Shown here piece after piece: positions 272 to 58,293 of a stretch of DNA of 64,000 bases. The DNA lies in NCBI GenBank assembly GCA_046348685.1, contig JAXMDT010000006.1:2395-66394 (forward strand), read 5' to 3'. The translations under genes and the position numbers were made by a program. This stretch comes from Rickettsiales bacterium (GTDB taxonomy: Bacteria > Pseudomonadota > Alphaproteobacteria > Rickettsiales > UBA998). Each line of letters opens with the position of its first letter. Position 1 is the stretch's first letter. The notes under the pieces are model-generated. The model saw only the letters and a list, made by a program, of their open reading frames with translations. It did no database searches and had not been told where the DNA came from.

Positions 272-753
272 AGAAGATTCAGATCGTCATCGTTCTCTCG
301 CTCATCTTGAATATGGTGCTGGGCGGGATGCTTATTGGCATGAAAATGCACGATCGGCCTCACTCGCCGATGACGACGCTGAAAGTCTGGGGCAAGAACG
401 AGCTGCCCGCCGAAAAGCAGCAGGCGTTTAATGTCATGATGCAGAAGCTGGATACCGATACGCACGACCTCCGCCAGCAGGTGAAGGAAGCGCGGCGCGA
501 GATGCACCGCCAGCTGGCTGCAGAAACCTATGACAAAGCGGCGTACCTGAAAGCGGTCGATAATTTCCAGAAGCTGATGAAAGCGCAGATGCGCCAGTTC
601 GCCGGTTCGGTCGCGGATTTCGCGACGCAGCTTACACCGGAGGAACGCGCCTCGCTCGTCAAGATGCTGAGCCGCCGCCCACCGCCACCGGGTGAAAAAC
701 CGGCGGAGCAAAAGCCTGGCTCATCCGAACCTGCCAAGTCTGAAGCGCACTAG
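268..753 (+). CDS. periplasmic Spy/CpxP/ZraP-like (LTxxQ-type) stress or metal sensor protein
   Basis: I moved the start to ATG 268 (MKKIQIVIVLSLILNMVLGG signal/anchor). The body is helical and Q/K/E/R-rich with an LTPEE motif, followed by a Pro-rich tail. Confidence 0.5.
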   Translation: MKKIQIVIVLSLILNMVLGGMLIGMKMHDRPHSPMTTLKVWGKNELPAEKQQAFNVMMQKLDTDTHDLRQQVKEARREMHRQLAAETYDKAAYLKAVDNFQKLMKAQMRQFAGSVADFATQLTPEERASLVKMLSRRPPPPGEKPAEQKPGSSEPAKSEAH

Positions 754-3700
754 TTTTTAAGGCCTAGCTTTTTTTCCAGTTCTGGATCAAGGCTATAGAG
801 CGGAAGATCAACATGGCGCTGCAGATACGCGTCGAAATTACCGAGATTTGCTGCGTTATACATTTGCCGGTGCTCGATATCTTCCTGTGCAATCACCGCC
901 GATAAAATGGCCTGATTCATGATATAAACCGGAGGAAGTTGCGGCGTATCGGGTGTCCCAGGTATGCCAGGCGAAGGCGGCGCGGGCACACCAGGATCGG
1001 ACGGAACAGGAGTCGATCCCGTATTGAGAGAACCGCTGCCGCCGCCCGTTTTGACATCGCGTGAACTATTGAACGTGACGCCGGTTCCGGTCGTGCCGGT
1101 AAAATCGATATCGTAGAACGTGCGGGCAGGGCCGCTGAAGGTGATGGAGGCATTGGTGCCGGGAGCGCCGGTCTGGCTGCCCATAAGGTTGATCAGACCG
1201 TTCGGCCCGGTCTTGAATTCAACCGGTGCGTCCCACATGTGCTGATTGATGTTGATGAAACCACTGCTGTCGGCTCGCCCGATCACCAGGCTACCCGCAT
1301 CGATACTGTTTAAAAACGCTTCCGTCAGTTGCAGCGTGCCCGGAGCACCGGCGACGCCGATATCGGTCGATGTAGAGGTCGGCGCAACCGTCACTACGCC
1401 AGTCGTTTGAACAGTCACCAGATTGTTTGACATCGTATTGGTGTTGATCGTGATGTTGCCGGTCGATGTGTTTTTGCCGAGATAATTAGTCAGGTCACCC
1501 ATGGACGAAAATGCCGGAGCGATACCGTTGCTTGTCGCGTTGATCGCGATGTTGCCATCTCCCGTGGTCCACACTTCGGCTGGCACATCGGCAACACTCG
1601 TGGCATCGGATAACATATAAAATCCGTAATTACTGGCGCCCGATCCGGTGCCGCCTTTTCCAGTAATATCAATGTCGCCGTCGACGGAATGGATAAAGCC
1701 GGCAACTGCAATAACCACGCCATGATCATTATCCAGGCTGCTGCCCCCCGTACCCTTAATGGTGATGTTCGCTGCCGTCGGTCCCGTGCCGGTGGACTCC
1801 ACGCCTGCATATAAATTAAAGAGTACGCCGCGCGCACGGTCTTCTGTCCCTGTGCCGCCTGTTCCTTCCATCGTAATGTCCCCGTATCCCGAGCGGACAA
1901 CAGCGTAATCCTCCACGCGCAGTCCCACGGCGCTGTTGGTACCGGAACCGCCATATCCCTTCATTTCAATTTTTGCGGCATTAGCGGTTGTCCCTAAGGA
2001 TTCCACGACCACCTGATCCGTGACAATGATTCCAAAATTGTTGGCGCCAGGAGCATTGCCGCCTCTGCCTTCAATATAAATATCGCCATCAATAGAAGTG
2101 ATCGCTGTATCCTGATCATTCAGATGTACGCCTTGATTGGAACCGGTCGTGCTGGTTCCCGCAATTCCGGTCAGGCTGATTTTACCCGCTGACGCTCCGG
2201 TGCCCGCCGACGTAATTTTAGCACCTTGTATCACGCCGATGCCTAGAACGTTTCCCCCATTGGTTCCCGTGCCGCCGGTGCCGTGCAGGATAATATCGGC
2301 ATCCACCGTCGATATTTCCGTATTCGCATTCGTGAGATAGATGCCGCTTTGCGTATTTAAATCCGTGCCGCCGACTCCGGTTATCCGGATGTCGCCGACA
2401 ACGCCGGTTCCAGCAGAGCTTATTTTTGCGCCGGTGGCCATCACTACGCCGCGATCGCCATTGCTGGTACTTGTGCCGCCTTTACCATATACTGTGATTG
2501 CGCCGCTGGTAGTCGCAAGTTCGGTGCCGGCTCCGTCAAGTGAAACGCCGCGGTTGGTGCTCGTTCCGGTGCCGCCAAATCCTATCAGCTTCATGTTTCC
2601 CGACGTGCTCTGGATGGAAGAACCGCCTTCCATTCTGATTCCCATAAGGCTGGCAGAGGAAGTGGTTGCGCCCTGTCCAAGAATAGTAACGCTCCCGGCA
2701 CCGGTGGTAATATCGCTATTATTAATGCGTACGCCGCTGACCAAGGCGCTGGTGCCAAGCGCAAAGTGATCCGGCCTGCCATCATTCGCGGCTCCATCGT
2801 TCAGGACATTTCCTGCAGTATCTGTAATATCAAAACCGTCATCCGCGCCGCCGCCCACATAAAAATCACCGCCGTTGGTCGTGATATTCGTGTTTACAAG
2901 AGAAACAGCGCCGCCCTCCGTCGTATCATGCAATCCTGCATCCGCCCAGAAAACCGTATGCAGCTTGCCAGTGCCGGTAGCCGTGATGGTGTTATTGCCG
3001 GTTGAATTGATGTAGCTATCGGCTTTTAAGGTCAGCGTGACATCCGTGGCGGATGTACTGGTGATATCCGCCGTGCCTAACGTAATGACACCGCTTTGAG
3101 TGGTTCCGGTTGTTCCCGTGGTAATCGTCACGTTGTTTCCGGCCGAGAGGGCGACGCCTATGCTCTCAGCGCTGATGCGGTAACTATCGGAAGGAGCATT
3201 TACAACACCGCCTGTGCCCGGTACGTTATTCTCAGCACCTGGTTGCGCATTGTTCTGAATGGTGACATTGCGTGGATCGAGCAGCCATTCGCCCACCGTG
3301 CCCCATGCGGAGGAGGCGTCTGCAGAACCGGTGAGGCCAAGGTTAATTTTACCCGAGGTTTCGATATGGCCGCCATTGCCATCATTAGGCCCACCCTTGG
3401 CGAGGATGGTGCCGTCGAATTGCGTGGTCTCATCCGACCATACGGCAACGATACCGCCATTGCCATTATCCGTTGCGCTGGCATTGATACGTGCGCCGGT
3501 TTTCACCGTTGTATTTTTTGCATTCCTGATCGTGCCTTTACCCTGCCAGCCGCCACCGACCTTCACAATCCCGCCGCCGTCTTTGCCAGTCGCACGCAGT
3601 CGAGCATCGGTTTCGAGCGTGACATTGCGCGCGGTGACTTCGATCTTGCCGCCGAAGGTGAGCGCGCCGTTTTCTATTCTGGCATCGCTGGCATCGATAA

Positions 3701-4448
3701 TACCATCCACGTTCACGGTGCTGTCGACCAGGCTGGCGGCATCTGTGGCAGTCAATGCCACATACGAAGCTGCGATCGTGCCGGTATGTGTTATAGACGT
3801 TTCTTTTGCGGCATCGGTAACAGCGATAGATACCAATCCATCGCCGTAAAGATCCAACGTTGCCGTTTCTGCCCCAGCGAGTTGTGCCTTGCCAAGCTTG
3901 GCGGTGATGATGCCGTTGTTCTCGACGTTAGGCGCAAGTATCGCTACTAAGCCTGCGTCTTTTGCGGTGATGGAACCGTTCGCAATAATTTTTGCATCTG
4001 CATGACCCGGTATGGTCAGTTTAAGCGGCCCGTCCTGCAGGAATGCATCGTTACTGATATCTGCTGTCGTGGCGATAAGGCTACCGACATCGACCTTGGA
4101 ATTCTTGCTGAAGACCATGCCGCTTGGGTTGGAAAGGATCACCGTACCATTCGCCGTGATGCTGCCGAGAATCTGCGATGGATTCTGATCATGGATGCGG
4201 TTCAGTGTGATGGCACTGGTGGACGGCTGTTTGAAATCAACGCGCTCACCTGCACCAATGTTAAAACTATTCCAGTCAATCGCTGCGCGGTTCGTACTTT
4301 GCGTGACCGTCGTAATATTTGCTGTTTGCCCGATGATTGCGCTGCCTGCAGACACAGTCCCGCCCGCCGGTGCAGCCTGGACGGGAATGCAAGGCAGGCA
4401 GCACAATGCTGTCGAGGCAAGGAGCGTACGGTAAAAGAAGGACTGCAT
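750..4448 (-). CDS. TpsA-type filamentous haemagglutinin-like exoprotein (two-partner secretion passenger)
   Basis: A signal peptide is followed by a TPS/haemagglutination-activity domain (NRAAIDWNSFNIGAGERVDF...NRI...SQILGSITANGTVILSNPSGMVF). There are more than 8 tandem ~40-aa G-x-GG-(T/S) beta-helix repeats and a Pro-rich C-terminal region. Confidence 0.85.
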   Translation of the reverse strand: MQSFFYRTLLASTALCCLPCIPVQAAPAGGTVSAGSAIIGQTANITTVTQSTNRAAIDWNSFNIGAGERVDFKQPSTSAITLNRIHDQNPSQILGSITANGTVILSNPSGMVFSKNSKVDVGSLIATTADISNDAFLQDGPLKLTIPGHADAKIIANGSITAKDAGLVAILAPNVENNGIITAKLGKAQLAGAETATLDLYGDGLVSIAVTDAAKETSITHTGTIAASYVALTATDAASLVDSTVNVDGIIDASDARIENGALTFGGKIEVTARNVTLETDARLRATGKDGGGIVKVGGGWQGKGTIRNAKNTTVKTGARINASATDNGNGGIVAVWSDETTQFDGTILAKGGPNDGNGGHIETSGKINLGLTGSADASSAWGTVGEWLLDPRNVTIQNNAQPGAENNVPGTGGVVNAPSDSYRISAESIGVALSAGNNVTITTGTTGTTQSGVITLGTADITSTSATDVTLTLKADSYINSTGNNTITATGTGKLHTVFWADAGLHDTTEGGAVSLVNTNITTNGGDFYVGGGADDGFDITDTAGNVLNDGAANDGRPDHFALGTSALVSGVRINNSDITTGAGSVTILGQGATTSSASLMGIRMEGGSSIQSTSGNMKLIGFGGTGTSTNRGVSLDGAGTELATTSGAITVYGKGGTSTSNGDRGVVMATGAKISSAGTGVVGDIRITGVGGTDLNTQSGIYLTNANTEISTVDADIILHGTGGTGTNGGNVLGIGVIQGAKITSAGTGASAGKISLTGIAGTSTTGSNQGVHLNDQDTAITSIDGDIYIEGRGGNAPGANNFGIIVTDQVVVESLGTTANAAKIEMKGYGGSGTNSAVGLRVEDYAVVRSGYGDITMEGTGGTGTEDRARGVLFNLYAGVESTGTGPTAANITIKGTGGSSLDNDHGVVIAVAGFIHSVDGDIDITGKGGTGSGASNYGFYMLSDATSVADVPAEVWTTGDGNIAINATSNGIAPAFSSMGDLTNYLGKNTSTGNITINTNTMSNNLVTVQTTGVVTVAPTSTSTDIGVAGAPGTLQLTEAFLNSIDAGSLVIGRADSSGFININQHMWDAPVEFKTGPNGLINLMGSQTGAPGTNASITFSGPARTFYDIDFTGTTGTGVTFNSSRDVKTGGGSGSLNTGSTPVPSDPGVPAPPSPGIPGTPDTPQLPPVYIMNQAILSAVIAQEDIEHRQMYNAANLGNFDAYLQRHVDLPLYSLDPELEKKLGLKN

Positions 4449-4619
4449 GTCCTTGATATTACCAGACGTTTCTTAATAAAAAGGTATATGATATAAGCAT
4501 TTACCTTAAATATGATTTAGTCCGGCAAGCCATCGAAAAAAAAGAATATACGGCGGAGATTTTATACCATGTGGTCGTATCATGTGTGGGTCGGATGTCT
4601 GATCCGGAAAAGGATATGT

Positions 4620-5875: not shown

Positions 5876-6835
5876 TAGTCCATACTCCCCCACACTTTTC
5901 ACGCGCTGGTGGAACTGCAATTTCTTCACATATTCCATCGGATTTTTGGGGGTGACGATGGCATTCGGGTCGTGGAAGACCATGTCGTGCGCCCGTGTCA
6001 GCAGGAAGCGCAGCGACGCGCCGCGTGCGAGCAGGGGCATGGCATCCATTTCCGCTTTGGTGAGGGGCTTTACCTGGTTATAGGCAGAGAGCAGCAATCC
6101 TGCTTTCGTGACGTTAAATTGCCCATGTTCGAAGCACCAGGCATTCATCGTGATGATAAGGTCGTAGATATAAAAATCCGTACAGGCGAAATAGAAATCG
6201 ATGAAGCCGGAGAGCGTACCATCACGATAGAACACGTTATCGGGAAATAGGTCGGCGTGGATCACCCCGCGCGGCAGATCGGTATCTTTCGGCCAATGCG
6301 CTTCGAGGTAGGCAAGTTCGTCCGCAATCATCGCTGCAAGCCCCGGCTGAATGTCATCCGCCCTGTTGCCGATTTTTTCAGTGAGCGTGTGCCAGCCTGA
6401 GACCGAAAGATCGTTGACGCGCGTGCCGGAAAATCCCTCCGATGTCAGATGCATCTTTGCCATCATCGCGCCAAGCGGTCGCATATGTTCGTTGCGAATC
6501 GCGGCCGGGCTTTTGCCTTCCAAAAACGTAACGATCGCCGCCTTCTTTTCGCCCAGCGCATAGGTGCTTTCGCCCGATGTCGTATGCAGCGGCAGCGGGC
6601 AGGGGATGCCATGTTCCGCGAGATGCTCCATGATGCCGAGGAAGAAGGGGATATCCTCCAGCCTCACGCGTTTTTCATAGATAGTTAAGATATATTTCGT
6701 TTCGCCGGTGGCGATCAGATAGTTGCTGTTTTCCACCCCTTCGGCGATGGCTTTTTTGTGCACAATTTTTCCCAGCGCATAGCTGTCAGCAATGCGCTGG
6801 ATATCGTCGTCGGTCAGGTGCGTGTAAACGGCCAT
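5873..6835 (-). CDS. thrB: homoserine kinase (type II, APH-fold ThrB)
   Basis: MAVYTHLTDDDI...GVENSNYLI...HADLFPDNVF...IDFYFAC is typical of the alphaproteobacterial ThrB family. The length is 320 aa. Confidence 0.85.
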   Translation of the reverse strand: MAVYTHLTDDDIQRIADSYALGKIVHKKAIAEGVENSNYLIATGETKYILTIYEKRVRLEDIPFFLGIMEHLAEHGIPCPLPLHTTSGESTYALGEKKAAIVTFLEGKSPAAIRNEHMRPLGAMMAKMHLTSEGFSGTRVNDLSVSGWHTLTEKIGNRADDIQPGLAAMIADELAYLEAHWPKDTDLPRGVIHADLFPDNVFYRDGTLSGFIDFYFACTDFYIYDLIITMNAWCFEHGQFNVTKAGLLLSAYNQVKPLTKAEMDAMPLLARGASLRFLLTRAHDMVFHDPNAIVTPKNPMEYVKKLQFHQRVKSVGEYGL

Positions 6836-6974
6836 GCACGACCCTTATGGGATTCGTGCATTTTTGTCACGCCTGATTCGCGTTCCAAAATCGGTTGACG
6901 CATGATATAATTGCGATTAAGCACAATAGATAACCCATAAAAAACGGTTCCCCGGCCAGCAAAGGAGAACACGC

Positions 6975-28849: not shown

Positions 28850-29137
28850 ATGCAGCAGTCATATGTTTATATCATGGCTAGCAAGCGAAATGGGACGCTT
28901 TATATCGGCGTTACATCCAATCTTACTCAGCGAGTCTATCAGCATAAAGAAGGTTTGGCTGATGGCTTCACCAAAAAGTATAATATCAAACTGCTGGTTT
29001 ATTATGAAATTCACGAAGAAATAGAGCAAGCTATCCTCCGGGAGACACAGATGAAGGCATGGCAGCGAAAATGGAAGCTGGAATTGATAGAAAAGTTCAA
29101 TCCGGACTGGAAAGATTTATATGAAACCATTATTTAG
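28850..29137 (+). CDS. GIY-YIG nuclease family protein (UPF0213/COG2827-like)
   Basis: YVYIMASKRNGTLYIGVTSNLTQRVYQHKEG...KLLVYYE...A..RE.Q.K.W.R.WK is present. The ORF is 95 aa. Confidence 0.9.
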   Translation: MQQSYVYIMASKRNGTLYIGVTSNLTQRVYQHKEGLADGFTKKYNIKLLVYYEIHEEIEQAILRETQMKAWQRKWKLELIEKFNPDWKDLYETII

Positions 29138-29227: not shown

Positions 29228-30802
29228 ATGACCATCTCCCTCTATAACACGCTCACCCGCCAGAAAGACGCCCTTGTTCCTGAGAATGAGAAGAATGTCC
29301 GCATGTATGTGTGCGGGCCGACGGTGTATGACCGGGCGCATCTGGGTAATGCGCGCTCGGTGGTGGTGTATGATGTGCTCTACCGGCTGCTGCGGCATGT
29401 GTACGGCGAAAAGCAGGTTACCTATGTGCGCAACATCACCGATGTCGATGACAAGATCAACAAGGCCGCCGTTGAGCGCGGCATCACGATTCAACAGCTG
29501 ACGCAGGAAGTCACCGGCTGGTTCCATGCCGATATGGAAGCGCTGAATTGCTTAGAGTTGCCGGAAAAAAATCAGCCGCGTGCAACACAGTATATTAAAC
29601 AAATGATCAAGATGATCGAAAGCCTGATTGCGAATGGCAATGCTTACGTGGCCGAAGGGCATGTTTTGTTTGATGTAAACACCTCCCCCAGTAGGGGGGA
29701 GGATGGGAGGGGGGCGTTGGATGCTCAGAGTTCCCAAAGCCCCCACCCTAACCTTTCCCCTACTGGGGTGGGAAATTGGTATTATGGCATGCTTTCGGGA
29801 CGTTCGCTGGATGATCTGATTGCCGGGGCGCGGGTGGAAGTTGCGCCGTACAAGAAAAGTCCCGGTGATTTTGTGCTGTGGAAACCCGCAGCGGCGACCG
29901 ACGATGCATCGAGCAAATTTGAATCCCCCTGGGGAGTAGGGCGTCCCGGCTGGCATATCGAATGCTCGGCGATGGCGACGGAACTTCTCGGCGATACTTT
30001 CGATATACATGGCGGCGGCGCGGATTTGATGTTCCCGCACCATGAGAACGAAATCGCGCAGGCCTGCGCCGCCAATCCCGGATCACGCTTCGCGAAGATG
30101 TGGGTGCATAACGGATTCCTCACCGTGCATGGCGAGAAGATGAGCAAATCGCTCGGCAATTTCATCACCGTGCGCGATTTGCTGGATAAGGGCGTGCATG
30201 GCGAAGTGATCCGCTTCGCGCTGCTCTCAACGCATTACCGCAAACCGCTCGACTGGACGGACAAGCTGGTTGAAGAAGCTTTTTTTGATCTCAAGTATTT
30301 TGCTCAATATCTATGGCAGAATCAGGGTTTTAAATTTGATAAATTTGAAAAAGAATGGAAAACATTTTCACGCGAACCTGAAGCACAAATTTATCTTTCA
30401 AGATTTTACGAGAGCTTAGAAAGCGATCTCAACTTTAGTGTTGCAAAAACTGTTATTTACGATGTTATTGATGAAATTAAAAAACATGTTTTTAATTTAG
30501 AAGATAAAGAAGACAATCAAGAAAATGAAAAAAACTATTTCATTTATCGTTCAACATTACGGGAAATGTGTGAATTTCTGGGATTATGTACTGTCAACTT
30601 TGTTGAGTGGCAAAAGCAGGAAGAAGCCAACAAAAATAGCGGTAGCGATGTAGAAGCGATTCAAAATCGCATCGGAGCGCGGAAAGCAGCTAAGCTTGCC
30701 AAGAACTGGGCGGAGGCAGACCGCATACGCGATGAACTAAAAGCCGAGGGCATCCTGCTCGAAGACAAGCCGGGTGATGTGACGGAGTGGAGAAGGCTTT
30801 AA
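29228..30802 (+). CDS. cysS: cysteine--tRNA ligase
   Basis: [18 protein letters not shown] contains the HIGH motif and KMSKSLGN is present. At 524 aa it is longer than usual because of a ~30-codon repeat insertion. It contains a strongly AT-rich internal segment. Confidence 0.95.
29682..29775. repeat. family A ('GEG-type') MITE-like element in frame in cysS
   Basis: cctcccccagtaggggggaggatgggagggggg...cccccaccctaacctttcccctactggggtgggaaa encodes [31 protein letters not shown], between FDV and YGMLSG. Confidence 0.75.
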
Positions 30803-31698
30803 TGGCTAGCCTTCTTGAATACTTCTACAATGATTTTTGGCGATATAGAGCGTATGGATCAAATTGGCCTTTAGCCCTCTTTTTAGGTGAAAAATATCCT
30901 TCACCTAGTTTATCAGGGTCAAGCTTTTTAGGGTTACCAGAATTACAAGAGCACAGCTTTTTATATGCTCATAGATACGACGAAGCTACCCGAAGCTTTC
31001 CATTAATTTTCTATATTCCAGCAATTGAAGAACATGAGATTCTAATTATAAGAATATTAGAAAACCTACATTACTTCTTAGATCATGGACTTCTAAAAAC
31101 AGGCCCTATATTCAATGAAAAAATACTAAATGAAGAGTTGGATTTTAGCGGAACAATATATTTTTATTCAGAAAATATTATCGGCGTTGAAACGCAAAAG
31201 AAACTGGAAGAATATGCGGGTTTACGAATTATAATTAGAGAAAAACTTTACGCTGAAGAAAAATCTAAAGTTGAAAAACCAGTTGCATTTATTTCCTATG
31301 ATAATCGCGATAAAGAAGTTGCTGAGCAGATAGTCTTTGGACTCCAAAAAATGAATTTTCCTGCACCAATATGGTTTGATCAATATTCCCTTAAGTGGGG
31401 CAATAATATGAGAAAGACTATTGAAGATGGCTTAAAAAGATCAAAAAAATGCATAGTTGTTCTATCTCAAAATTATATGGAAAACAGAAGCTGGGCTGCA
31501 GAAGAATTTGAAAGCGCCTACCAAAAAGGTTTGCACGAAAAAGAAGATATTTTTCTTCCGATATGGAAAGGCGTTACAGAAAAAGAAGTTTATGAATTTT
31601 CACCTAAGCTTAAAAATGTAAAAGGCATTATTTGGAGCGAAGATAATAAAGATAAAAATATGCGTAACGTATTCGATGTTCTAAAAGAGTTACTATGA
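30802..31698 (+). CDS. TIR-domain protein with an uncharacterised ~165-aa N-terminal domain
   Basis: The C-terminal TIR pattern is VAFISYDNRDKEVAE...IWFDQYSLKWG...KKCIVVLSQNYMENRSWAAEEFE...IFLPIW. The gene is strongly AT-rich. Its start overlaps the cysS stop (TAATG); a GTG at 30787 is an alternative start. Its stop overlaps the next start (ATGA). Confidence 0.8.
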   Translation: MASLLEYFYNDFWRYRAYGSNWPLALFLGEKYPSPSLSGSSFLGLPELQEHSFLYAHRYDEATRSFPLIFYIPAIEEHEILIIRILENLHYFLDHGLLKTGPIFNEKILNEELDFSGTIYFYSENIIGVETQKKLEEYAGLRIIIREKLYAEEKSKVEKPVAFISYDNRDKEVAEQIVFGLQKMNFPAPIWFDQYSLKWGNNMRKTIEDGLKRSKKCIVVLSQNYMENRSWAAEEFESAYQKGLHEKEDIFLPIWKGVTEKEVYEFSPKLKNVKGIIWSEDNKDKNMRNVFDVLKELL

Positions 31699-32324
31699 AC
31701 AAAGGAAAACTGACCATTGTCGGGTCACTGACCAGCCCGTTTGTGAGGGTGGTGCGGACGGTGTGCGAGGAACTGCAGCTGCCCTACGACATGGATTTGA
31801 CCGTCTTTTTCGCCAAGCAGGATGAAGCGGCGAAAGAACATCTCTCGCAGCACAATCCCTTGATGCGGGTGCCGGTGCTGATCGACGGCGAAAAACATAT
31901 ACTCGATTCGCGGATTATTCTCAGCTATCTGCTGAAGCATCCGGACGCCAAACCGCTCACCGATTTCCGCGCGGATTTTCCGCGGGGACTGGAAGACGAA
32001 AACCGCCTTTCGGTGCTTTATGGGATCGTCGATGCCGGGGTGCTGTACTTCATTATGCGCAACCTTCACCCGGAAGTAAAACCGGACACAGGCTACCTGG
32101 TGCAATCCCAGCGCCGCATCCGGCAGGGGCTGGAGTGGCTAGATAAAGATAAGGAGCTAGGCGAAGGTTTCGGGATTCCGGAACTGGTTCTCCTCTGCGG
32201 GCTGGAATGGTTCAAGAAGAGGGAAGTGGTTGAATGGACAGGATATTCGCATCTTAGAGCCGTCCATGCGCGTTACCATGAGCGGCCATCTCTCGTAAAA
32301 ACATGTATTCCGGAAAACGCTTAA
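31695..32324 (+). CDS. glutathione S-transferase family protein
   Basis: The thioredoxin-like N-terminal domain reads SPFVRVVR...HNPLMRVPVLIDGEKHILDSRIILSYL. The G+C is normal. Confidence 0.7.
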   Translation: MNKGKLTIVGSLTSPFVRVVRTVCEELQLPYDMDLTVFFAKQDEAAKEHLSQHNPLMRVPVLIDGEKHILDSRIILSYLLKHPDAKPLTDFRADFPRGLEDENRLSVLYGIVDAGVLYFIMRNLHPEVKPDTGYLVQSQRRIRQGLEWLDKDKELGEGFGIPELVLLCGLEWFKKREVVEWTGYSHLRAVHARYHERPSLVKTCIPENA

Positions 32325-36818: not shown

Positions 36819-38282
36819 ATGGCACGTTGGTGGAATAAGACGAAAAAGGCTGTAGGAAACGCTACGATTGGCGAGCAGGCACGTTATAACCGGCTAAACG
36901 CTGCTGTGGGCGCAACAGAAGACGAGCTGAGCAGACTTGAGACTGGGACCGGGGGTACAAGGGGTCTCCTCGACCTCGAGCATGAGCATGAGGAAGCTGT
37001 TGCTAAACATGCTGAAGCGGCAGCCGCGCATGCAGAAGCAAAAGACGCATTTACCCCAATTGATATTCAGCAGAAAAAACTACAAGCGGAAGTTACAGGT
37101 GCGAAAACGCGCCTTGAGGCACTTCAAAAAGCTCATGAAGCTGCAGAAAAGGCCCATGCCGATCATCAAGCGAAAATTAGCGATATTGAAAGCCGTGTCG
37201 GTTCGGCTTCGGTTGAAGACCTTGCGCAAGCTAGGCAAGATGCCGAAATTGCCCGTGCTCAGGCACGTCACCCACTTAAAAAACTCGAGACTACGTTGCC
37301 TGGTGGAAGTACAGGTAATATTGATGAGTACTTTAAAAATGAACGGGAGAGATATAAAGAAGCCAAGCGTAAAATTAAATCCGCTTTAGGCACGCCTCGT
37401 GAAGAGACTGCAATAAAAGAGTTTAATGAAGCAAGAGCAAATCTTGTTGAAGCCCGAAAGATTCGACGTGGTACTGAAGAATACAGGGTATGGAGCGCAG
37501 CTAACAACGAGTACCTTGCAGCAGAAGCACTGCATGAGGAAGCAAAAGCCCTTGGCGGACTCCGAGCGAAATCAGATGGATTGAAAAAAGCAGCTGATCA
37601 AGCAGAAGCAAAACTCACAGGGAGTCCTGATCATGTGAAGCTTAAGGAAGCAGAAGCGGCATTGGAGACTCACACAACGGAAGTACATACACCTGCTGCA
37701 AACAGGTTGGCATTAGCAAAAGAGGCAGTTGAAGGCGGATCCGTTACAGGCACTCGCGAAGCAATGAAAAACGCTGAGCATGCACTTAAATCGACAACCC
37801 GCCGCCAGGAATTACTGGAAGGCCGACTTGAGCGCCAAACAAAACGCTTGGAGCAGGTCGGCGAAAAATGGCGGATCGGCAAGTCTGGTAAGATTGTGAC
37901 GGGTCCAATGAAATTTGCTGGAAAAACGTTGAAATGGGGTGGTCTTGGTGTGTTGGCAGCCGGCGCTGGCGCTTTGGCTTACAATGCGCTAAAGCCTTCA
38001 AATCGCGGTTCTGATGAGGCGCTGCAAGGTCTGAAAGACCAGATCGCCGAAAATGAAGCGAAGCTGACGGCGATTCAGACGATGCAGCCGCAGCAGCCGG
38101 TGATGCAGCAGCCGATCATGGTTGCCGCGACGCCGCAAGGCCCGGTCGCAACGCAATATCCGCCCGTAATGATGGTTCCGGCGAACAGCAATGTTCCAGC
38201 AACCTCGATTACCAGCGCCGGCCTGCAGTACCAGGGTCAGCTGATAGCGAATCAAGGCCAGATGATGGGAGCGCCTGCGTAG
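36819..38282 (+). CDS. coiled-coil protein with a C-terminal TM anchor and Q/P/M-rich tail
   Basis: This 487-aa ORF starts 9 nt after the previous stop. Long heptad-like Ala/Glu/Lys helices are followed by TM WGGLGVLAAGAGALAYNAL. The tail is MQPQQPVMQQPIMVAATPQG...LQYQGQLIANQGQ. Confidence 0.6.
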   Translation: MARWWNKTKKAVGNATIGEQARYNRLNAAVGATEDELSRLETGTGGTRGLLDLEHEHEEAVAKHAEAAAAHAEAKDAFTPIDIQQKKLQAEVTGAKTRLEALQKAHEAAEKAHADHQAKISDIESRVGSASVEDLAQARQDAEIARAQARHPLKKLETTLPGGSTGNIDEYFKNERERYKEAKRKIKSALGTPREETAIKEFNEARANLVEARKIRRGTEEYRVWSAANNEYLAAEALHEEAKALGGLRAKSDGLKKAADQAEAKLTGSPDHVKLKEAEAALETHTTEVHTPAANRLALAKEAVEGGSVTGTREAMKNAEHALKSTTRRQELLEGRLERQTKRLEQVGEKWRIGKSGKIVTGPMKFAGKTLKWGGLGVLAAGAGALAYNALKPSNRGSDEALQGLKDQIAENEAKLTAIQTMQPQQPVMQQPIMVAATPQGPVATQYPPVMMVPANSNVPATSITSAGLQYQGQLIANQGQMMGAPA

Positions 38283-39149: not shown

Positions 39150-39668
39150 ATGGCTTCAAATGACGATACCACCGATGCACGCTTTCTGAGCGAGGCGGAA
39201 TCCGACCAGTTCAAAACCTTTGAACAGGAGATCGCCAAGCTTGCCGAGCGGGCTGCGGCGGGTGCGGAAAACATCGATATGGAACTGGCCAACCTGCTGG
39301 TTGGCGTGCCTGATTCCGTGCGCAATGAAGCGGTGGCCCAGTTTCGCGCGCTGGTCAAAGAGATGCAGCAGGAAAAGGGCCAAAGCGCCGTTCTCTCGCC
39401 GGAGCAGGAAAAACAGATGACGCTGCTCAAAGAACAGGAGCGCCAATTTCTTGCGCACTGGCTTTCAGATAAAACGCTAAAGAAGCTGCGTGAGGCGATT
39501 CTTTCCAACCCGCTATTTATGTCGCAGGTGATGAATATCGGCGATGAGCTTTACAAACGCGGCGTGTTTGTGACGCTGGATAAAGATATGCCGCAAACTG
39601 GCCAGCAGGTCACCGCGCAGCCGGTGATTGCCCCGGGCCACGAGCGTGGCGAGGGCCGGAAGCGCTGA
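39150..39668 (+). CDS. hypothetical protein
   Basis: This 172-aa helical, E/Q/K-rich ORF belongs to no family I recognise. Its 3' end overlaps the convergent ORF 39610-41166 by 59 nt, so one of the two ends may be mis-set. Confidence 0.45.
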   Translation: MASNDDTTDARFLSEAESDQFKTFEQEIAKLAERAAAGAENIDMELANLLVGVPDSVRNEAVAQFRALVKEMQQEKGQSAVLSPEQEKQMTLLKEQERQFLAHWLSDKTLKKLREAILSNPLFMSQVMNIGDELYKRGVFVTLDKDMPQTGQQVTAQPVIAPGHERGEGRKR

Positions 39669-41166
39669 TATGTTCTTCACCTGATTTAAGCCGTGCTAAC
39701 AATTCATCAAATGGCTTACTGTTTTTCGCTGCCTCATAAAGTGCATGCTCATCTACCGTACCATGAGCAAACAATTCCTGCTCAATTGCCTGGATAATTG
39801 GTCTGTTCATTGCGTCGGCATTTTCTCCTACGTAAAAACCGATCTGCAAAAGCGCATTACGCGCTTGAGCTGCCCTTTCCGCTATCACATGGTGTTTTGC
39901 GATTGCATCTTCCAGTGCTTCCTGAAGTGGTTGCCAAGCAGCTTCATATGCTGTGGCAAATCCTTTTATATAGTGTGTTGCTAAGGCATGGTCATACAGA
40001 TGATTTTGAATAAGGCTCTGCTGAATCTGAAAATCATTTTTGCCTTCATAATGTTTTCTAAAAATAGCTAGAGAGTCTGCATCGATAAAAACAGGCAGGC
40101 GGTGTGGATCGACAGCGGTATCAAACTGAATTGTCAATGGCTTGTTGGGGTGCTTTTCATGGTCAGCGAGTAAAACAGCGGCATTGCTAACACTAAAATT
40201 GGGATTCGGTTTACCTGGAATGGCTTCCTGAAGTTCAAACGTCAGCGGGCTTACCACAACTGTGCTGGGCTCTGCGTAGCCGCCTAGGATATCTGCGGAA
40301 ATAATATCAACATTCTTTTGAGATAAATAACTCAGGACGTTTTCCAAATTTGCGTGGGAGCGTGGGTTACTGTCGAAACGTGCGCCAATCAATCTAACTT
40401 GTAGTTTTCGATCGCCAAACCGCTTGAAGAAGCTATCGAGGCTTTGCGTATCCGATTCGTAATTTAAATGTACGATACCTGTTTTCTTAGTAGCCGGATC
40501 GCGTGCGATAATAGTGACGCATTCCCCGATATTGTCCGTGCCAATACAGGTTTTATTAGAAAAACCGGCTTCGCCTTCTTCAACGCGCTTTGCGGTAACA
40601 TCTGTATTGCCTCCAGATTGCATATGCCGAGACATGCGCAAAGCTTGCTCCTGGACACCGGCCAATCTTTCTTGATAGCGTCTCGCGGTAGAGGGGGCGC
40701 TTCCAGCATAATGGGAGATCGTCTTGCCTAAAGCACTGTAGAGATAATCGATATCACGAAAGGCATGGTCTGTGCGTCCTAAATTTTCATGAATATCGAC
40801 TGCCTTTTGTAATAGCGGAATGCCATATTCTGCAGCAGGTTTTCCGTCTACATCGCCCTCTATGTTCAAGCATGACTGCCCTGCCATGGAATATGTATTA
40901 CCTTGTTCAACATATTTTCCCTCGTGCCCATATGCATCTCCGGCTAGCTTATGTGACAGAATGCTTTCAGGTATATTTCCAGAGTTGAATGCATCATAAC
41001 CTTTTTGCTCCGCAGCACCTGCGGTAGAGTTTATATTTAAAACATATTGCAGGTTGGATTGCACGCGAGTGCGCGTGTTGAAACCGGATGGAAGCTTCAT
41101 CAAGCGATCAATGAGATCGTTGAAAGCCGTAGATGTAATGGGTTCACCTTGGATAGAAAATGACAT
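39610..41166 (-). CDS. hypothetical 518-aa protein with a CheD/CNF1-like Thr-Cys-His motif (candidate deamidase or effector)
   Basis: The central segment CIGTDNIGECVTIIARDPATKKTGIVHLNYESD has Thr at -6 and His at +17 relative to the Cys. G+C is lower than in the flanks. There is no signal peptide and no chemotaxis context. Confidence 0.5.
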   Translation of the reverse strand: MSFSIQGEPITSTAFNDLIDRLMKLPSGFNTRTRVQSNLQYVLNINSTAGAAEQKGYDAFNSGNIPESILSHKLAGDAYGHEGKYVEQGNTYSMAGQSCLNIEGDVDGKPAAEYGIPLLQKAVDIHENLGRTDHAFRDIDYLYSALGKTISHYAGSAPSTARRYQERLAGVQEQALRMSRHMQSGGNTDVTAKRVEEGEAGFSNKTCIGTDNIGECVTIIARDPATKKTGIVHLNYESDTQSLDSFFKRFGDRKLQVRLIGARFDSNPRSHANLENVLSYLSQKNVDIISADILGGYAEPSTVVVSPLTFELQEAIPGKPNPNFSVSNAAVLLADHEKHPNKPLTIQFDTAVDPHRLPVFIDADSLAIFRKHYEGKNDFQIQQSLIQNHLYDHALATHYIKGFATAYEAAWQPLQEALEDAIAKHHVIAERAAQARNALLQIGFYVGENADAMNRPIIQAIEQELFAHGTVDEHALYEAAKNSKPFDELLARLKSGEEHISASGPRHARGPGQSPAAR

Positions 41167-41641: not shown

Positions 41642-41878
41642 TTATGCAGGCCTGGTGACGGTTTTAAAGCTGAATGCATGCAGCGTGGTCCCCATGTCGG
41701 TGCCCAAGGCATCGTAAATCAGCTGATGCTGCCTGACGCGGGGAAGACCGGAAAATGCGGAAGAAACAATGGTCGCCTGCCAATGATCGCCATCGCCCGC
41801 AAGATCAGTGAAATCGATTTCGGCATCTGGCAGCTTCGCTTTGATGCGCCGCGCGATTTCTTCCGAAGACATGGGCAT
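41642..41878 (-). CDS. BolA family protein
   Basis: GDGDHWQATIVSSAFSGLPRVRQHQLIYDAL...LHAFSFKT is present. The ORF is 78 aa. Confidence 0.9.
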   Translation of the reverse strand: MPMSSEEIARRIKAKLPDAEIDFTDLAGDGDHWQATIVSSAFSGLPRVRQHQLIYDALGTDMGTTLHAFSFKTVTRPA

Positions 41879-43227
41879 TATTTCTTCGCCGTGCGCTTCA
41901 AGCTATTCGCATGCAAAACATCAGGTGTCACGTATGCCGGAACAGATGAATGGCGCAAGAAAACAATATCATGAGCGCGCAAATCTTTATAAAGTTGTTT
42001 AAAATGCCTACTTACTTCTTCGCGAGATAGATTCATTCGCTGGCTTACTTCATCTAAAATATTGCCAATTGTACGATTACCATCCATGGCCAAAACAAGT
42101 GCTGCTGTTGATGGAAAAATATCTACGATAATTGGGTCGTTCATCATGGGATTCATAAACATGATGTTGTTGCCTTCCGCAGTCAAAACCATTTTCAAGA
42201 ACGGCTTCATGTGAGCCGAAAAGCTATAATTAACAACAGGAATAAAATTCTCATCCGTTTCATCTGGTTCTGTAAGATCATAACGCGCGGCGTAAAATGT
42301 GTGCATTATTATATTACAGGACAAATTTTCCGCCAATGCCTGCTTTTCAATAGGCGTTAGACTTTCAATTTCTGACTGAAGCGCTTCATTTAAAATAAAG
42401 TGCGAAGGGTCGTAAATGCGGGCACCGCTTGTAAAGGGATGCTGCAGGCTAATCGATTTTAAACCTGCCGATGCTACAAATTCGTAAAGTTCGGGAATAG
42501 TATAGGCTCTGTCTTGAGGGTGTAAAAGCAAATCAAAGATTCCGCTATCGGTCGCTAAATCCTCCCGAAACATTTTTTGGGCGAACATAAACCAATTACC
42601 CAAAGGTAAGTTGCTTAGCAGATCACGCGTCATTTTGATTTTTTTTGCTCGTGAATCCACATTACGTAACATAGTGCGAAGAGCATCCTGAAGTGGATAC
42701 ACTCCTAATCTTCCATATTTTCCGTATACCATAAGACACATAACGCCTTCCGGCGATAGCACGGATGTTAACGATGCAAGTCCTTCTTCTGGGTCATTCA
42801 AATGGTGAAGGACACCGGAGCAGTTGATATAGTCAAATTTGCCAAGGCCCATTTTAGGAATGTCAAGAAGAGATGCATGTAGAAAAGTGATGTTATTTTT
42901 CAGTCCGCGAATTTCGGCGCGCTCCTTCGCTATGGCAATAGATGCTTTACTCAAGTCTACATGTACGACTTCGGCGCCAAGAGTTCCATACTGTTCAGCT
43001 GTGTAAATTGTCGTATCACCCGTACCACCACCAGCAACAAGAATTCTAAAATTTTTATCAAACTGTTTTTTCCCACCAAAACAATAGTGATTAAGTCTAT
43101 CCGGCATCTCTACGTAAGGTGCCATTATACCAATTTTTTCAGATTGCGGATCGCGCGGCGGGTACGGATAATCCTCGTACTGCTCTTTTACTTCCTGCAG
43201 AAAATTCGCCTTATTCGCTTTTGCCAT
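41878..43227 (-). CDS. class I SAM-dependent methyltransferase with a ~250-aa uncharacterised C-terminal region
   Basis: ILVAGGGTGDTT (motif I)...VHVDLS...INCSGVLHHLNDPEEGLASLTSVLSPEGVMCLMVYG is present. G+C is lower than in the neighbours. TAATG overlaps occur at both ends. Confidence 0.75.
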   Translation of the reverse strand: MAKANKANFLQEVKEQYEDYPYPPRDPQSEKIGIMAPYVEMPDRLNHYCFGGKKQFDKNFRILVAGGGTGDTTIYTAEQYGTLGAEVVHVDLSKASIAIAKERAEIRGLKNNITFLHASLLDIPKMGLGKFDYINCSGVLHHLNDPEEGLASLTSVLSPEGVMCLMVYGKYGRLGVYPLQDALRTMLRNVDSRAKKIKMTRDLLSNLPLGNWFMFAQKMFREDLATDSGIFDLLLHPQDRAYTIPELYEFVASAGLKSISLQHPFTSGARIYDPSHFILNEALQSEIESLTPIEKQALAENLSCNIIMHTFYAARYDLTEPDETDENFIPVVNYSFSAHMKPFLKMVLTAEGNNIMFMNPMMNDPIIVDIFPSTAALVLAMDGNRTIGNILDEVSQRMNLSREEVSRHFKQLYKDLRAHDIVFLRHSSVPAYVTPDVLHANSLKRTAKK

Positions 43228-55175: not shown

Positions 55176-57497
<2,322 letters not shown>

Positions 57498-57624: not shown

Positions 57625-58293
57625 ATGGCTAACTATATTGTTCATTCGGAAATACAGGATTTCAAAAAAGTTAGAGAAACTGATCCATTTCAATTAGAGC
57701 TGAAAAAAGATCCATTAAAACAGGCAATCACTTTATTGCAGCTTGCGGATAACGACTATCTATCAGCAAGAATATTATTATTAAACGGCCTATGGCAAAC
57801 TGGAATACCTAAAGCAAATGAAGTGATAGAAAAAGTTTTAAAGGCAATTCTTATTTTGAGAGCTGTAGAGTTAGACCAGCTTGAAAAGCTAAGCCTAAAA
57901 TCCTATTACCACGACACGCCTAAATTATTTGAGGAATTAAAAAAATATTTGAATATTAAGGAAGGGGATTTTCAAAGAGAAAATAGTATCCTTAGTAATT
58001 ACTATCTATGTTATGAGCGCAGATATGAAAATTGGCTCTCGCATGGCATTACTTGTATGGATGCGTCAGTAAATTCAACCGATAGAATATATACTTTTTT
58101 AAGGAATTTTTTTGTTTCCAAAATTCCTGATTCTTTAAGAGAAGAAGCGAAAGTATTTGGCTTTTATCTATCTCCGCTTAACTCCTATGAAAAGAATCAC
58201 CCAGAGCGAAGAAAAATAAATAATTTAAAAGAACAAAATGCGGTCTTTTCTGCCTTGGAGATCAATCAAGAAAAATTAGAAAAATTATTATAG
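57625..58293 (+). CDS. hypothetical AT-rich protein, possibly HEPN-like
   Basis: This 222-aa ORF is very AT-rich. The N-terminal helices AITLLQLADNDYLSARILLLNG...ANEVIEKVLKAIL resemble HEPN. A candidate R-x6-H lies in ERRYENWLSH. The assignment is weak. Confidence 0.35.
   Translation: MANYIVHSEIQDFKKVRETDPFQLELKKDPLKQAITLLQLADNDYLSARILLLNGLWQTGIPKANEVIEKVLKAILILRAVELDQLEKLSLKSYYHDTPKLFEELKKYLNIKEGDFQRENSILSNYYLCYERRYENWLSHGITCMDASVNSTDRIYTFLRNFFVSKIPDSLREEAKVFGFYLSPLNSYEKNHPERRKINNLKEQNAVFSALEINQEKLEKLL

Follow-up and report, generated by a model that had tools for sequence, protein, structure and literature searches.

A divergent member of a widespread two-domain TIR family, encoded between cysS and a GST gene, as a candidate stand-alone anti-phage protein

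A 298-aa protein encoded at 30802..31698 of the window (the whole 64-kb stretch of the Rickettsiales contig analysed here; all features below lie on its + strand) is a divergent member of a widespread, unstudied two-domain TIR family whose proteins most likely act alone as NAD-degrading anti-phage sensors, in the manner of SpbK or the candidate PDC-S66 but with another sensor module. TIR proteins make up a major class of the NAD-based immune enzymes of bacteria, and little is known about how most of them detect infection. The family described here spans phyla and joins a TIR domain of the AbTir type to an undescribed N-terminal module of about 155 residues, with no partner gene. The copy in the window is a divergent singleton, and the family therefore matters more than the locus.

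Domain architecture and protein family

The first-pass annotation had proposed a C-terminal TIR domain from the motifs FISYDNRD, VVLSQNYMENRSWAAEEFE, and IFLPIW, each of which was found in the translation. Profile searches bore this out: Pfam TIR_2 (PF13676) matched aa 163–257 with 58.2 bits (cutoff 28) and Pfam TIR (PF01582) scored 38.4 bits (cutoff 21.3), both above the gathering thresholds. Together with Foldseek and the family profile, these matches delimited the domain to aa ~159–298 (31276..31695). The W-x3-E active-site motif, W231-A-A-E-E235, lies at 31492..31506, with the putative catalytic Glu, E235, at 31504–31506. W231, E235, and G200 were invariant in 57 aligned relatives, and W231 and E235 aligned with the W and E of the AbTir WTNYE motif (W204/E208). 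The E208A variant of AbTir lacks activity, and W204 is a residue informative for cyclase activity (bioRxiv 10.1101/2022.05.07.491051). The Glu suggested by the annotation was thus retained.

An AF2 model built from the 57 sequences (mean pLDDT 84.7) comprised two domains; it replaced a single-sequence AF2 model of poor quality (pLDDT 50.8). The modeled TIR domain has the flavodoxin-like five-strand, five-helix fold and superposes on solved TIR domains with TM-scores of up to 0.78. The best Foldseek matches were PdTIR, TcpB/BtpA, BtTir, and AbTir, with TM-scores relative to the target of 0.64–0.78 (mostly 0.73–0.78) and 27–33% identity to the TIR domain of the window protein. TcpB/BtpA from Brucella and PdTIR from Paracoccus, both alphaproteobacterial, ranked at the top (E ~6e-9, TM-score 0.73–0.78) and were matched by the family profile at E values of 1e-30 to 1e-32. 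The same profile matched AbTir at 1.3e-39 and BtTir at 5.5e-37, both of them NADases by biochemical proof, giving a range of 1e-39 to 1e-30 for the clade, and the next match was Cat1 at 3e-06. These profile and fold matches assign the TIR domain to the AbTir/BtTir/TcpB/PdTIR clade.

The closest TIR domains by profile and fold were those of AbTir (Acinetobacter baumannii) and BtTir (Bacteroides thetaiotaomicron) (PDB codes: 7UWG, 7UXU, 8G83, and 7UXR), which share the W-x3-E motif. As in the window protein, the TIR domain of both is C-terminal, and both are orphan genes without an adjacent Thoeris effector. The TIR domain of BtTir (residues 156–287, E230; bioRxiv 10.1101/2022.05.07.491051) has nearly the layout found here (~160–298, E235), the comparison with BtTir being confined to its TIR part. 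However, the TIR domains are only 27–33% identical, the BB loop differs, and the N-terminus of AbTir is a coiled coil, whereas our model predicts a five-stranded alpha/beta module.

This N-terminal module (aa 1–158, 30802..31275) is family-specific, and we propose that it serves as a sensor or oligomerization domain. It carries the conserved motifs MA[ST]LxEYFxxDF, FYIP, and RIYxYxE as well as R146, and the window protein retains the family residues M1, L4, Y7, F8, D11, Y122, E124, and R146. In the AF2 model, strands are predicted at residues 16–23, 52–60, 65–72, 114–123, and 142–146, and helices at 78–99, 129–139, and 148–157. The N-terminus is thus conserved and predicted to be structured, and it has no signal-peptide-like sequence. 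Pfam and PDB sequence-profile searches with the module gave noise only, and Foldseek with the full-length model gave TIR domains only among the matches listed (PDB and BFVD). The N-terminal ~165 aa, which the first-pass annotation could not place, can nevertheless be assigned: they correspond to the conserved module of a large uncharacterized family.

That family was recovered by an exhaustive HMMER search; a word-indexed single-protein search returned the window protein only. It comprises hundreds of proteins of ~280–300 aa, mostly from Bacteroidota and also from Planctomycetota and Armatimonadota (in the indexed set, E values lie below 1e-30 for 76 clusters formed at 50% identity and below 1e-20 for 384 proteins). 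The window protein aligns over its full length with members of 276–311 aa and combines the N-module motifs with a C-terminal TIR domain at the family length, which identifies it as a member. Its closest homolog, P0002, is 41% identical over residues 1–294.

The window copy is nevertheless the most divergent member seen and a singleton in the word-indexed search of 5.8 billion proteins. Substitutions affect 19 of the 65 conserved columns, and every one of these lies within the TIR domain; other members have a median of 3 and a maximum of 7. The changes H166Y, L203M, S206T, and K233A affect positions that are 100% conserved elsewhere, and its BB loop reads WGNNM versus VGDSL in the family. As the BB-loop substitutions G174A and S176A abolish AbTir activity (bioRxiv 10.1101/2022.05.07.491051), these changes could have altered or eliminated activity in the window copy.

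We then considered the neighborhoods of 11 family members. No recurrent neighbor and no SIR2, SLOG, STING, Macro, or ThsA-like gene was observed within 5–6 kb (less on short contigs), and no SIR2, SLOG, STING, or Macro partner gene was found in the 64-kb window, in agreement with the first-pass annotation. Its description of a single-gene or novel configuration stands as regards the partner gene; the two-domain layout, however, is family-wide rather than unique. Four of the 11 loci lie in defense or mobile islands, which contain GmrSD, a CoiA-nuclease, and HipA; integrases and SocA; HD-CE/HATPase and TIR-COR-Roc; and an integrative element with integrases, ArdC, and AAA_13, respectively. The other seven are not obviously defense islands. 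At 10 of the 11 loci the family gene is richer in AT than its flanks, and the family is scattered across phyla; both features are typical of mobile defense genes.

PADLOC gave PDC-S66 (PDLC05062), a single-gene defense candidate, as the best match for all 22 members tested. With E 8e-30 for the window protein, PDC-S66 is of the same size (282 positions) and likewise has an N-terminal domain followed by a C-terminal TIR domain. However, only profile positions ~136–282, the TIR part, align, and the N-terminal 135 positions never do so in the window protein or six further members, so that the match to PDLC05062 is not full-length. The literature yielded PDC-S66 in PADLOC output lists only, with no experimental validation, and the candidate is a computational one. 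Models for retron/RT-TIR (type XII), SAVED-TIR, TIR-NLR, and TIR-pAgo systems likewise matched the TIR part only, and sequence-profile searches revealed no RT, SAVED, NLR, or Argonaute module in the N-module.

Gene junctions, composition, and origin of the locus

The TIR gene is flanked by cysS (29228..30802, 524 aa; TIGR00435, 466 bits; Pfam tRNA-synt_1e, 361 bits) and a GST gene (31695..32324, 209 aa; GST_N_3, E 1.3e-11), the neighbors named in the first-pass annotation. The open reading frame list has an entry at 30787–31698 that opens at a GTG codon upstream of ATG 30802. Because the family N-terminus MA[ST]LxEYF aligns with MASLLEYF, the alignment indicates that ATG 30802 is the true start. 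Both overlaps described earlier were read in the sequence: TAATG at 30800..30804 (cysS TAA, 30800–30802; TIR ATG, 30802–30804) and ATGA at 31695..31698 (GST ATG, 31695–31697; TIR TGA, 31696–31698). As no terminator or promoter was predicted on the + strand between cysS and the GST gene, the TIR gene is embedded as claimed, and cysS, TIR, GST, and cimA are probably co-transcribed.

A Shine–Dalgarno-like element, GGAGAAGG (30789..30796), lies within the final cysS codons TGG AGA AGG, 5 nt before the TIR ATG. Native genes use AGR for only 5% of their Arg codons, but such purine-rich codons are common at this position at the cysS end in relatives. In three relatives (L001, L003, and L009), the cysS stop likewise overlaps the next gene. 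Judged from these sequences, the stop/start overlap at the cysS end is ancestral to the locus, and the TAATG overlap alone is therefore no sign that the TIR gene has resided there for long. On the same two grounds, GGAGAAGG is taken to be an ancestral coupling signal now used by the inserted TIR gene; evolution of AGA AGG as a Shine–Dalgarno sequence after the insertion was rejected.

The TIR gene has a GC content of 0.329 and a GC3 of 0.244, whereas neighboring genes span a GC3 of 0.62–0.70, with 0.643 in the GST gene (native composition), 0.703 in cimA, and 0.665 in gltX. The edges of the AT-rich block match the ends of the TIR coding sequence to ~15 nt, that is, the foreign block and the complete coding sequence have the same extent. 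The contrast with both neighbors drawn in the first-pass annotation holds for the TIR gene itself, but cysS is not evenly GC-normal and carries an AT-rich patch of its own.

Horizontal acquisition is the best reading of the TIR gene. Relatives of the host have the order gltX-(GIY-YIG)-cysS-cimA without a TIR gene, which indicates that the gene is an insertion and shows that it is not a conserved cysS neighbor, a possibility raised earlier. The closest cysS in GTDB genomes reaches only ~53% identity across its whole length, and the closest in metagenomes ~65% across the N-terminal 340 aa; the insertion is therefore deduced from synteny in distant relatives only. The GST gene had no tblastn match in the loci of 80 relatives and is absent from the position after cysS there. 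No empty site was found in a close relative, and a GST query of metagenomes gave no match.

As for the route of acquisition, no meaningful direct or inverted repeats flank the TIR gene and no tRNA or Rfam element was detected in the 64-kb window, which rules out a mobile-element signature at the gene. No support emerged for an origin from phages or plasmids, as the curated phage and plasmid sets gave TIR-only matches; full-length relatives are rare on phage or plasmid records, with a few in IMG/VR at or near contig ends (L166 and L168). A donor in which cysS adjoined the TIR gene also found no support, cysS being nearby in 0 of the 11 family loci. At this locus, a bare foreign coding sequence occupies precisely the junction at which an essential gene was already translationally coupled to the next.

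Proposed function and competing explanations

We propose, with about an even chance of being right, that the gene was acquired by horizontal transfer and encodes a self-contained anti-phage sensor-effector that needs no second gene. The N-module would recognize a sign of infection, a multimeric phage protein being the most plausible one, and its binding would gather TIR domains into composite active sites. The TIR domains would then cleave NAD+, with E235 as the catalytic residue, into nicotinamide and ADPR and/or a cyclic ADPR isomer, the expected cyclic product being 2'cADPR by analogy with AbTir and BtTir. The resulting depletion of NAD+ would abort the infection. In such a scenario, the bare coding sequence would have inserted behind cysS, at a junction with translational coupling, and expression would probably be constitutive and low within the cysS-TIR-GST-cimA transcript. 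Should the family prove to act in abortive infection on its own, its N-module would be a new infection-sensing domain, and TIR NADases of the AbTir/BtTir type would gain a defined biological role in the carriers.

SpbK, encoded by ICEBs1 of Bacillus subtilis, supplies this mechanism and provides a tested precedent for sensor-triggered TIR clustering. Docking of the phage portal on the N-terminal domain of this single TIR protein clusters the TIR domains and thereby switches on the NADase (PMC12847820), which yields ADPR and N1-cADPR. Like the window protein, SpbK has no partner gene, and it is carried on horizontally moving DNA. However, SpbK has a four-helix bundle of 94 residues at its N-terminus, in contrast to the modeled alpha/beta module of ~158 residues in the window protein, and SpbK was absent among the sequence and fold matches of the window protein and its family.

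Three other explanations were weighed against the stand-alone sensor-effector. The one that deserves most attention, although we consider it improbable, is that the gene is a decaying or drifted passenger, recently acquired and under relaxed selection, with little or no NADase activity and no current role. The protein is an outlier in that 19 of its 65 conserved TIR columns are changed, some of them in the BB loop. This would fit such a passenger, as would its singleton status in the protein index and the unameliorated composition of the gene. On the other hand, the reading frame is intact, has exactly the family length, and aligns with the family termini at both ends, and all family-invariant residues are retained, including W231, E235, G200, and R204. 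Moreover, some of the deviations (I190, S230, and A232) recur in P0002, which suggests that part of the divergence is specific to a subclade rather than a product of decay. Somewhat less probable still is a ThsB-like signal generator in a split Thoeris-type system, in which a cADPR signal would activate an effector encoded elsewhere (ThsA-like SIR2-SLOG or Macro). ThsB, the TIR protein thought to sense infection in Thoeris, is represented in PADLOC by the ThsB1 model PDLC00417, which matched all 22 members with E values from 7.6e-15 for the window protein (aa 111–271) to 6e-30 for the best family match. AbTir-type TIR proteins make 2'cADPR, and 2'cADPR and 3'cADPR activate SIR2-SLOG ThsA effectors (PMC11204291 and PMC13232231). 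The partner search covered 64 kb of the 98.8-kb contig, which leaves room for a distant effector. However, the adjacent ThsA (SIR2-SLOG or Macro/TM) of Thoeris is absent here and at the 11 family loci, with no SIR2, SLOG, or Macro gene in the window or within 5–6 kb of those members, and Pfam ThsB_TIR (PF08937) scored 18.9 bits, below its cutoff of 21.2. The authors of the AbTir study concluded by comparative genomics that AbTir works separately from Thoeris, and they found AbTir and BtTir to be closer to PdTIR and TcpB than to BcThsB (bioRxiv 10.1101/2022.05.07.491051).

We regard as more doubtful again a host-targeting effector of the TcpB/BtpA/TcpC type, which would deplete NAD+ or disturb TIR-dependent signaling in a eukaryotic host. 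Brucella TcpB/BtpA and Paracoccus PdTIR are among the nearest solved structures, the closest cysS relatives come from MAGs labeled Rickettsiales, and a TPS-domain exoprotein as well as an RTX/cadherin adhesin are among the products encoded in the window. However, TcpB/BtpA is described as an animal-host effector with a different N-terminal region, whereas the present family is found mostly in environmental non-pathogens; free-living marine Bacteroidota, Planctomycetota, and Armatimonadota commonly carry it, and some copies lie in defense or mobile islands. The conserved, structured N-terminus lacking a signal-peptide-like sequence also argues against such an effector, and the purine, thiamine, and NAD biosynthesis genes kept in the window indicate that the genome is not obviously of the reduced obligate-symbiont type.

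An AT-rich segment within cysS

The essential cysS gene beside the TIR gene itself holds a compositionally foreign internal segment. This second AT-rich patch, recognized by GC3, covers aa ~342–468 (30250..30630), the variable helical/DALR anticodon-binding segment. Across codons ~345–465, GC3 falls to 0.13–0.25 versus ~0.7 on both sides. A tblastn search against cysS of 80 relatives gave no match to the patch, whereas the parts on either side of it are 50–67% identical in the best matches. Its identity to the relatives' segment is 15–29%, against 27–59% among the relatives themselves, and it is ~30–45 residues longer. It gave only a marginal match to the CysRS DALR motif and a marginal PDB match, and a donor search of the indexed protein database gave no match even at E ≤ 10. 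The cysS gene is therefore a compositional mosaic, and the patch is possibly linked to the TIR insertion. A far more speculative idea, to which we attach very little credence, is that the two AT-rich patches, 170 nt apart, arrived together and cooperate. The TIR N-module would then dock on or monitor the foreign CysRS segment or tRNA-Cys charging, an immune sensor would thereby guard CysRS, a housekeeping aminoacyl-tRNA synthetase, and the stoichiometry of the two proteins would be set by translational coupling to cysS.

The TIR gene and its protein family

The first-pass annotation had described an open reading frame with a C-terminal TIR domain between cysS (29228–30802 +) and a GST gene (31695–32324 +). 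This gene, at 30802–31698 (+), is present as described: its 298-aa product (the window protein) scored 58.2 bits against Pfam TIR_2 (cutoff 28; aa 163–257) and 38.4 bits against Pfam TIR, and the identities of both neighbours were upheld by Pfam. The ORF listing begins the call at an upstream GTG (30787–31698). The family's conserved N-terminal motif MA[ST]LxEYFxxDF aligns at the ATG at 30802, and we therefore regard this ATG as the true start. The stop/start overlaps noted on both sides were read directly in the raw sequence, with TAATG at 30800–30804 containing the cysS stop and the TIR start, and ATGA at 31695–31698 containing the GST start and the TIR stop. The TIR gene has a GC content of 0.329 against a window background of 0.53, and a GC3 of 0.244, compared with 0.64 for GST, 0.70 for cimA and 0.67 for gltX; this composition switch matches the ends of the CDS to ~15 nt. 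The reported AT-richness relative to both neighbours therefore holds for GST but needs qualification for cysS, which is itself a mosaic (GC3 0.13–0.25 over codons ~345–465). The observation is confirmed, and the interpretation placed on it is supported with refinements.

A word-indexed search of 5.8 billion proteins matched the window protein to itself alone. When 1.84 billion cluster representatives were searched exhaustively with HMMER, 6060 matches fell below 1e-3, 629 below 1e-10 and 76 below 1e-30; the best of these were 276–311 aa long, several aligned over nearly the full length, and the closest homologue (P0002) was 41% identical across residues 1–294. Two alignments, A1 (22 sequences) and A2 (57 sequences), defined a family of two-domain proteins. 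The N-terminal module of ~150 residues carries the motifs MA[ST]LxEYFxxDF, FYIP and RIYxYxE and an invariant Arg (R146), and the TIR consensus in both alignments is AFISHDSRDK...W[YF]DE[YF]SLKVGDSLRESIEKGLK..KKCILILSPNFL.N.GWTK.EF.SIF...LPIW. In an indexed database, a profile search retrieved 384 proteins below 1e-20, annotated solely as hypothetical or TIR-domain proteins. Sources given by name are the Bacteroidota Nonlabens, Flagellimonas, Flavobacterium and Sinomicrobium, as well as Planctomycetes and Fimbriimonadaceae MAGs.

The AlphaFold2 model built from A2 was confident (mean pLDDT 84.7, pTM 0.79). It predicted an alpha/beta N-terminal module (strands 16–23, 52–60, 65–72, 114–123 and 142–146; helices 78–99, 129–139 and 148–157) followed by a canonical TIR fold. 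The N-terminal domain, previously called unplaceable, indeed has no significant sequence match in Pfam or PDB, but is now placed as a conserved module of a large family. The window copy is a singleton that diverges from the rest of this large and so far unstudied family. It is a candidate single-gene TIR defence protein, and its N-terminal module is undescribed. We consider this family and the adjacent cysS mosaic more noteworthy than the TIR locus itself.

TIR active site and divergence of the window copy

By fold, the TIR half is nearest to PdTIR, TcpB/BtpA, BtTir and AbTir (Foldseek E ~1e-8, 27–33% identity; TM-score relative to target 0.64–0.78, mostly 0.73–0.78). Sequence-profile matches were strongest to the same proteins (AbTir 1.3e-39, BtTir 5.5e-37, BtpA 2.5e-32, PdTIR 3e-31), and the next, Cat1, reached only 3e-06. 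The Glu proposed earlier as catalytic, E235, is family-invariant, as is W231, and the two align with the E and W of the WTNYE motif of AbTir, the TIR NADase of Acinetobacter baumannii. In AbTir, E208A is inactive and W204 is highly informative for cyclase activity; 2'cADPR is the product of AbTir and of BtTir from Bacteroides thetaiotaomicron (bioRxiv 10.1101/2022.05.07.491051). The layout of BtTir, with TIR residues 156–287 and catalytic E230, is near-identical to that of the window protein.

The window protein retains all family-invariant residues. At 65 columns that are each at least 85% conserved among the other 56 A2 sequences, it departs 19 times, compared with a median of 3 and a maximum of 7 for the other sequences. 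All 19 departures fall in the TIR domain, a few are common to P0002, and they include H166Y, L203M, S206T and K233A, at positions 100% conserved elsewhere. The BB loop reads WGNNM instead of the family VGDSL. Activity was lost in the AbTir BB-loop mutants G174A and S176A (bioRxiv 10.1101/2022.05.07.491051); the window protein retains the Gly (G200) but has Asn at the Ser equivalent. The ORF is intact and encodes a full-length protein, but one whose activity may be modified.

Defence associations and possible modes of action

In PADLOC, the window protein (E 8.3e-30) and each of the 22 A1 members matched best to PDC-S66 (model PDLC05062), a single-gene phage-defence candidate that the searchable literature names only within PADLOC output lists. 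For the window protein and six further members, the alignment was confined to profile positions ~136–282; therefore, the family has the same TIR subtype and layout as PDC-S66 but a different N-terminal module. NCBIfam held no curated model for the family, giving weak TIR-part matches only. Neighbours were inspected at 11 distinct family loci, which had no recurrent neighbour and no cysS. Four of the 11 are defence or mobile islands, containing an HD-CE/HATPase pair and a TIR-COR-Roc protein (L083), GmrSD, a CoiA-type nuclease and HipA/HTH (L180), SocA and two integrases (L182/L183), or ArdC, RadC, AAA_13, TrwB and integrases (L187/L188). At L085, part of a GC-rich metagenomic genome, the family gene (6001–6843) is flanked by ribF and thiS; its stop overlaps the thiS start and its GC is 0.12 below that of its flanks, making it a second case, after the window, of a bare CDS in a housekeeping row. 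The family gene is AT-shifted by 0.04–0.18 relative to its flanks in 10 of the 11 loci, and the window copy shows the largest shift (0.33 vs 0.53). Curated phage and plasmid collections yielded TIR-only matches and no full-length relatives; IMG/VR has a few full-length relatives, at or close to the ends of their contigs (L166, L168).

Defence is assigned through guilt by association: some family genes sit in defence or mobile islands, and the family as a whole is patchily spread across taxa, differs in composition from its surroundings and matches a PADLOC candidate. The best-supported reading, to which we give about an even chance, is a stand-alone sensor and TIR NADase acting by abortive infection. 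The N-terminal module would recognize a phage component, the TIR domains would then cluster to form composite active sites, and these would cleave NAD+. This scheme is borrowed from SpbK, the TIR protein of Bacillus subtilis ICEBs1, whose N-terminal domain has been shown to bind the SPbeta portal, which brings the TIR domains together and turns on the NADase (PMC12847820); the enzymology is inferred by analogy with the AbTir/BtTir clade.

The next PADLOC matches were the ThsB1 model (PDLC00417) and the TIR portions of the RT-TIR, SAVED-TIR and pAgo-TIR models. The first of these would fit a ThsB-like protein generating a signal for an effector encoded elsewhere. As noted earlier, no SIR2, SLOG, STING or Macro partner is adjacent; Pfam and PADLOC revealed no defence partner gene in the 64-kb window, and none of these four occurs at the 11 family loci. 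We regard this alternative as improbable. The similarity to TcpB/BtpA would suit an effector targeting a host, which appears distinctly improbable beside the defence islands. A drifting passenger whose activity is lost or altered would account for the 19 departures, and the full-length frame and retained invariant residues speak against it; we consider it unlikely, though the likeliest of these three alternatives.

The insertion site and AT-rich patches of the window

The window is an ordinary alphaproteobacterial chromosome (PPDK, glyQS, ETF, nadE, gltX, cysS, cimA, purLQC, thiC, a two-component pair, nhaA and mutY), in which no tRNA genes or Rfam matches were detected. The nearest cysS among 185,579 species genomes was just ~53% identical over its full length, and the nearest in JGI metagenomes was ~65% identical over the N-terminal 340 aa; both sets of relatives are MAGs labelled Rickettsiales or Alphaproteobacteria. 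Their gene order is gltX-(GIY-YIG)-cysS, followed by cimA directly or after a small lineage-specific ORF, and both the TIR gene and GST are absent from their cysS locus. The cysS–cimA junction differs between lineages, and the absence of the TIR gene from these loci indicates that it is an insertion. A conserved cysS neighbour of native composition was not seen, as the relatives lack the gene and its GC3 of 0.244 is foreign. Neither a plus-strand terminator or promoter consensus between cysS and cimA nor flanking repeats marking a mobile element around the TIR gene were found. The GIY-YIG gene (28850–29137 +, 95 aa, GC 0.40) between gltX and cysS occupies the same position in two relatives (L001, L007; 63–67% identity) and is therefore an old resident despite its lower GC.

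The 3' end of cysS, TGG AGA AGG, gives GGAGAAGG, a purine-rich stretch 5 nt upstream of the TIR ATG. AGR makes up only 5% of Arg codons in native genes, and the AGA AGG was considered as an adaptation to the insertion; this was dropped, as relatives also use AGR there. Since the cysS stop also overlaps the next start in L001, L003 and L009, the inserted CDS took over an ancestral translational-coupling site.

The AT-rich patch of cysS, an essential gene, (nt ~30250–30630; aa ~342–468) covers the variable helical/DALR anticodon-binding region, and the codons before it and the last ~55 codons have a GC3 of ~0.6–0.75. In tblastn against cysS of 80 relatives, the patch had no match, whereas the flanking parts were 50–67% identical in the best matches. 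It is 15–29% identical to relatives, which are 27–59% identical among themselves in this segment, and is 30–45 residues longer. The patch is barely recognizable as CysRS (DALR_2 E 1.2e-5; Coxiella CysRS E 0.33), and a search of the indexed protein database returned nothing. Codon usage in the patch correlates with that of the TIR gene and two other AT-rich patches of the window (r 0.58–0.64; native genes 0.01–0.18), mainly reflecting a common AT3 bias. Only ~4 strongly AT-rich patches occur in the window, and 170 nt separate this one from the TIR insertion downstream, which suggests a link between the two; the patch may have come in with the TIR gene or on its own, or may reflect some local process. 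In a Rickettsiales MAG (L003, ~4366–4566), cysS shows a weaker drop in GC3 over the corresponding segment (0.28 vs 0.57 and 0.56), a hint that the segment may be prone to replacement or unusual evolution in the clade. Elsewhere in cysS, a ~35-residue insertion of native GC (29678–29797; aa ~151–190) in the CysRS catalytic domain is missing from all 14 aligned relatives.

A second AT-rich solitary gene (57625–58293 +; 222 aa, GC 0.32–0.34) directly follows thiC. It has a borderline Pfam HEPN match (22.5 bits, cutoff 22) and no PADLOC match, and may be another small foreign toxin/defence-type gene beside a housekeeping gene. The ThiC ORF itself (55179–57497 +; 772 aa) comprises a normal ThiC and a C-terminal DUF559 (aa 622–729, 132 bits), which has a Vsr-like endonuclease fold; no TPP riboswitch was detected upstream at Rfam gathering thresholds. 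An intragenic AT-rich patch (41941–42380, GC 0.38) occupies the 3' third, encoding the C-terminal part, of a 449-aa SAM methyltransferase ORF (41878–43227 −) that overlaps purL by 1 nt; its methyltransferase domain matches PADLOC mad2 (E 4e-16), probably through generic methyltransferase similarity. Two ORFs had no Pfam family, 36819–38282 (+; 487 aa), with a weak and probably meaningless PADLOC LmuB match (E 8e-5, 20 bits), and 39610–41166 (−; 518 aa). Two large proteins that are secreted or surface-exposed are also encoded in the window: an exoprotein of 1232 aa with a TPS (two-partner secretion) domain (750–4448 −) and an 848-aa cadherin/Big_9/RTX-repeat adhesin (61130–63676 −).
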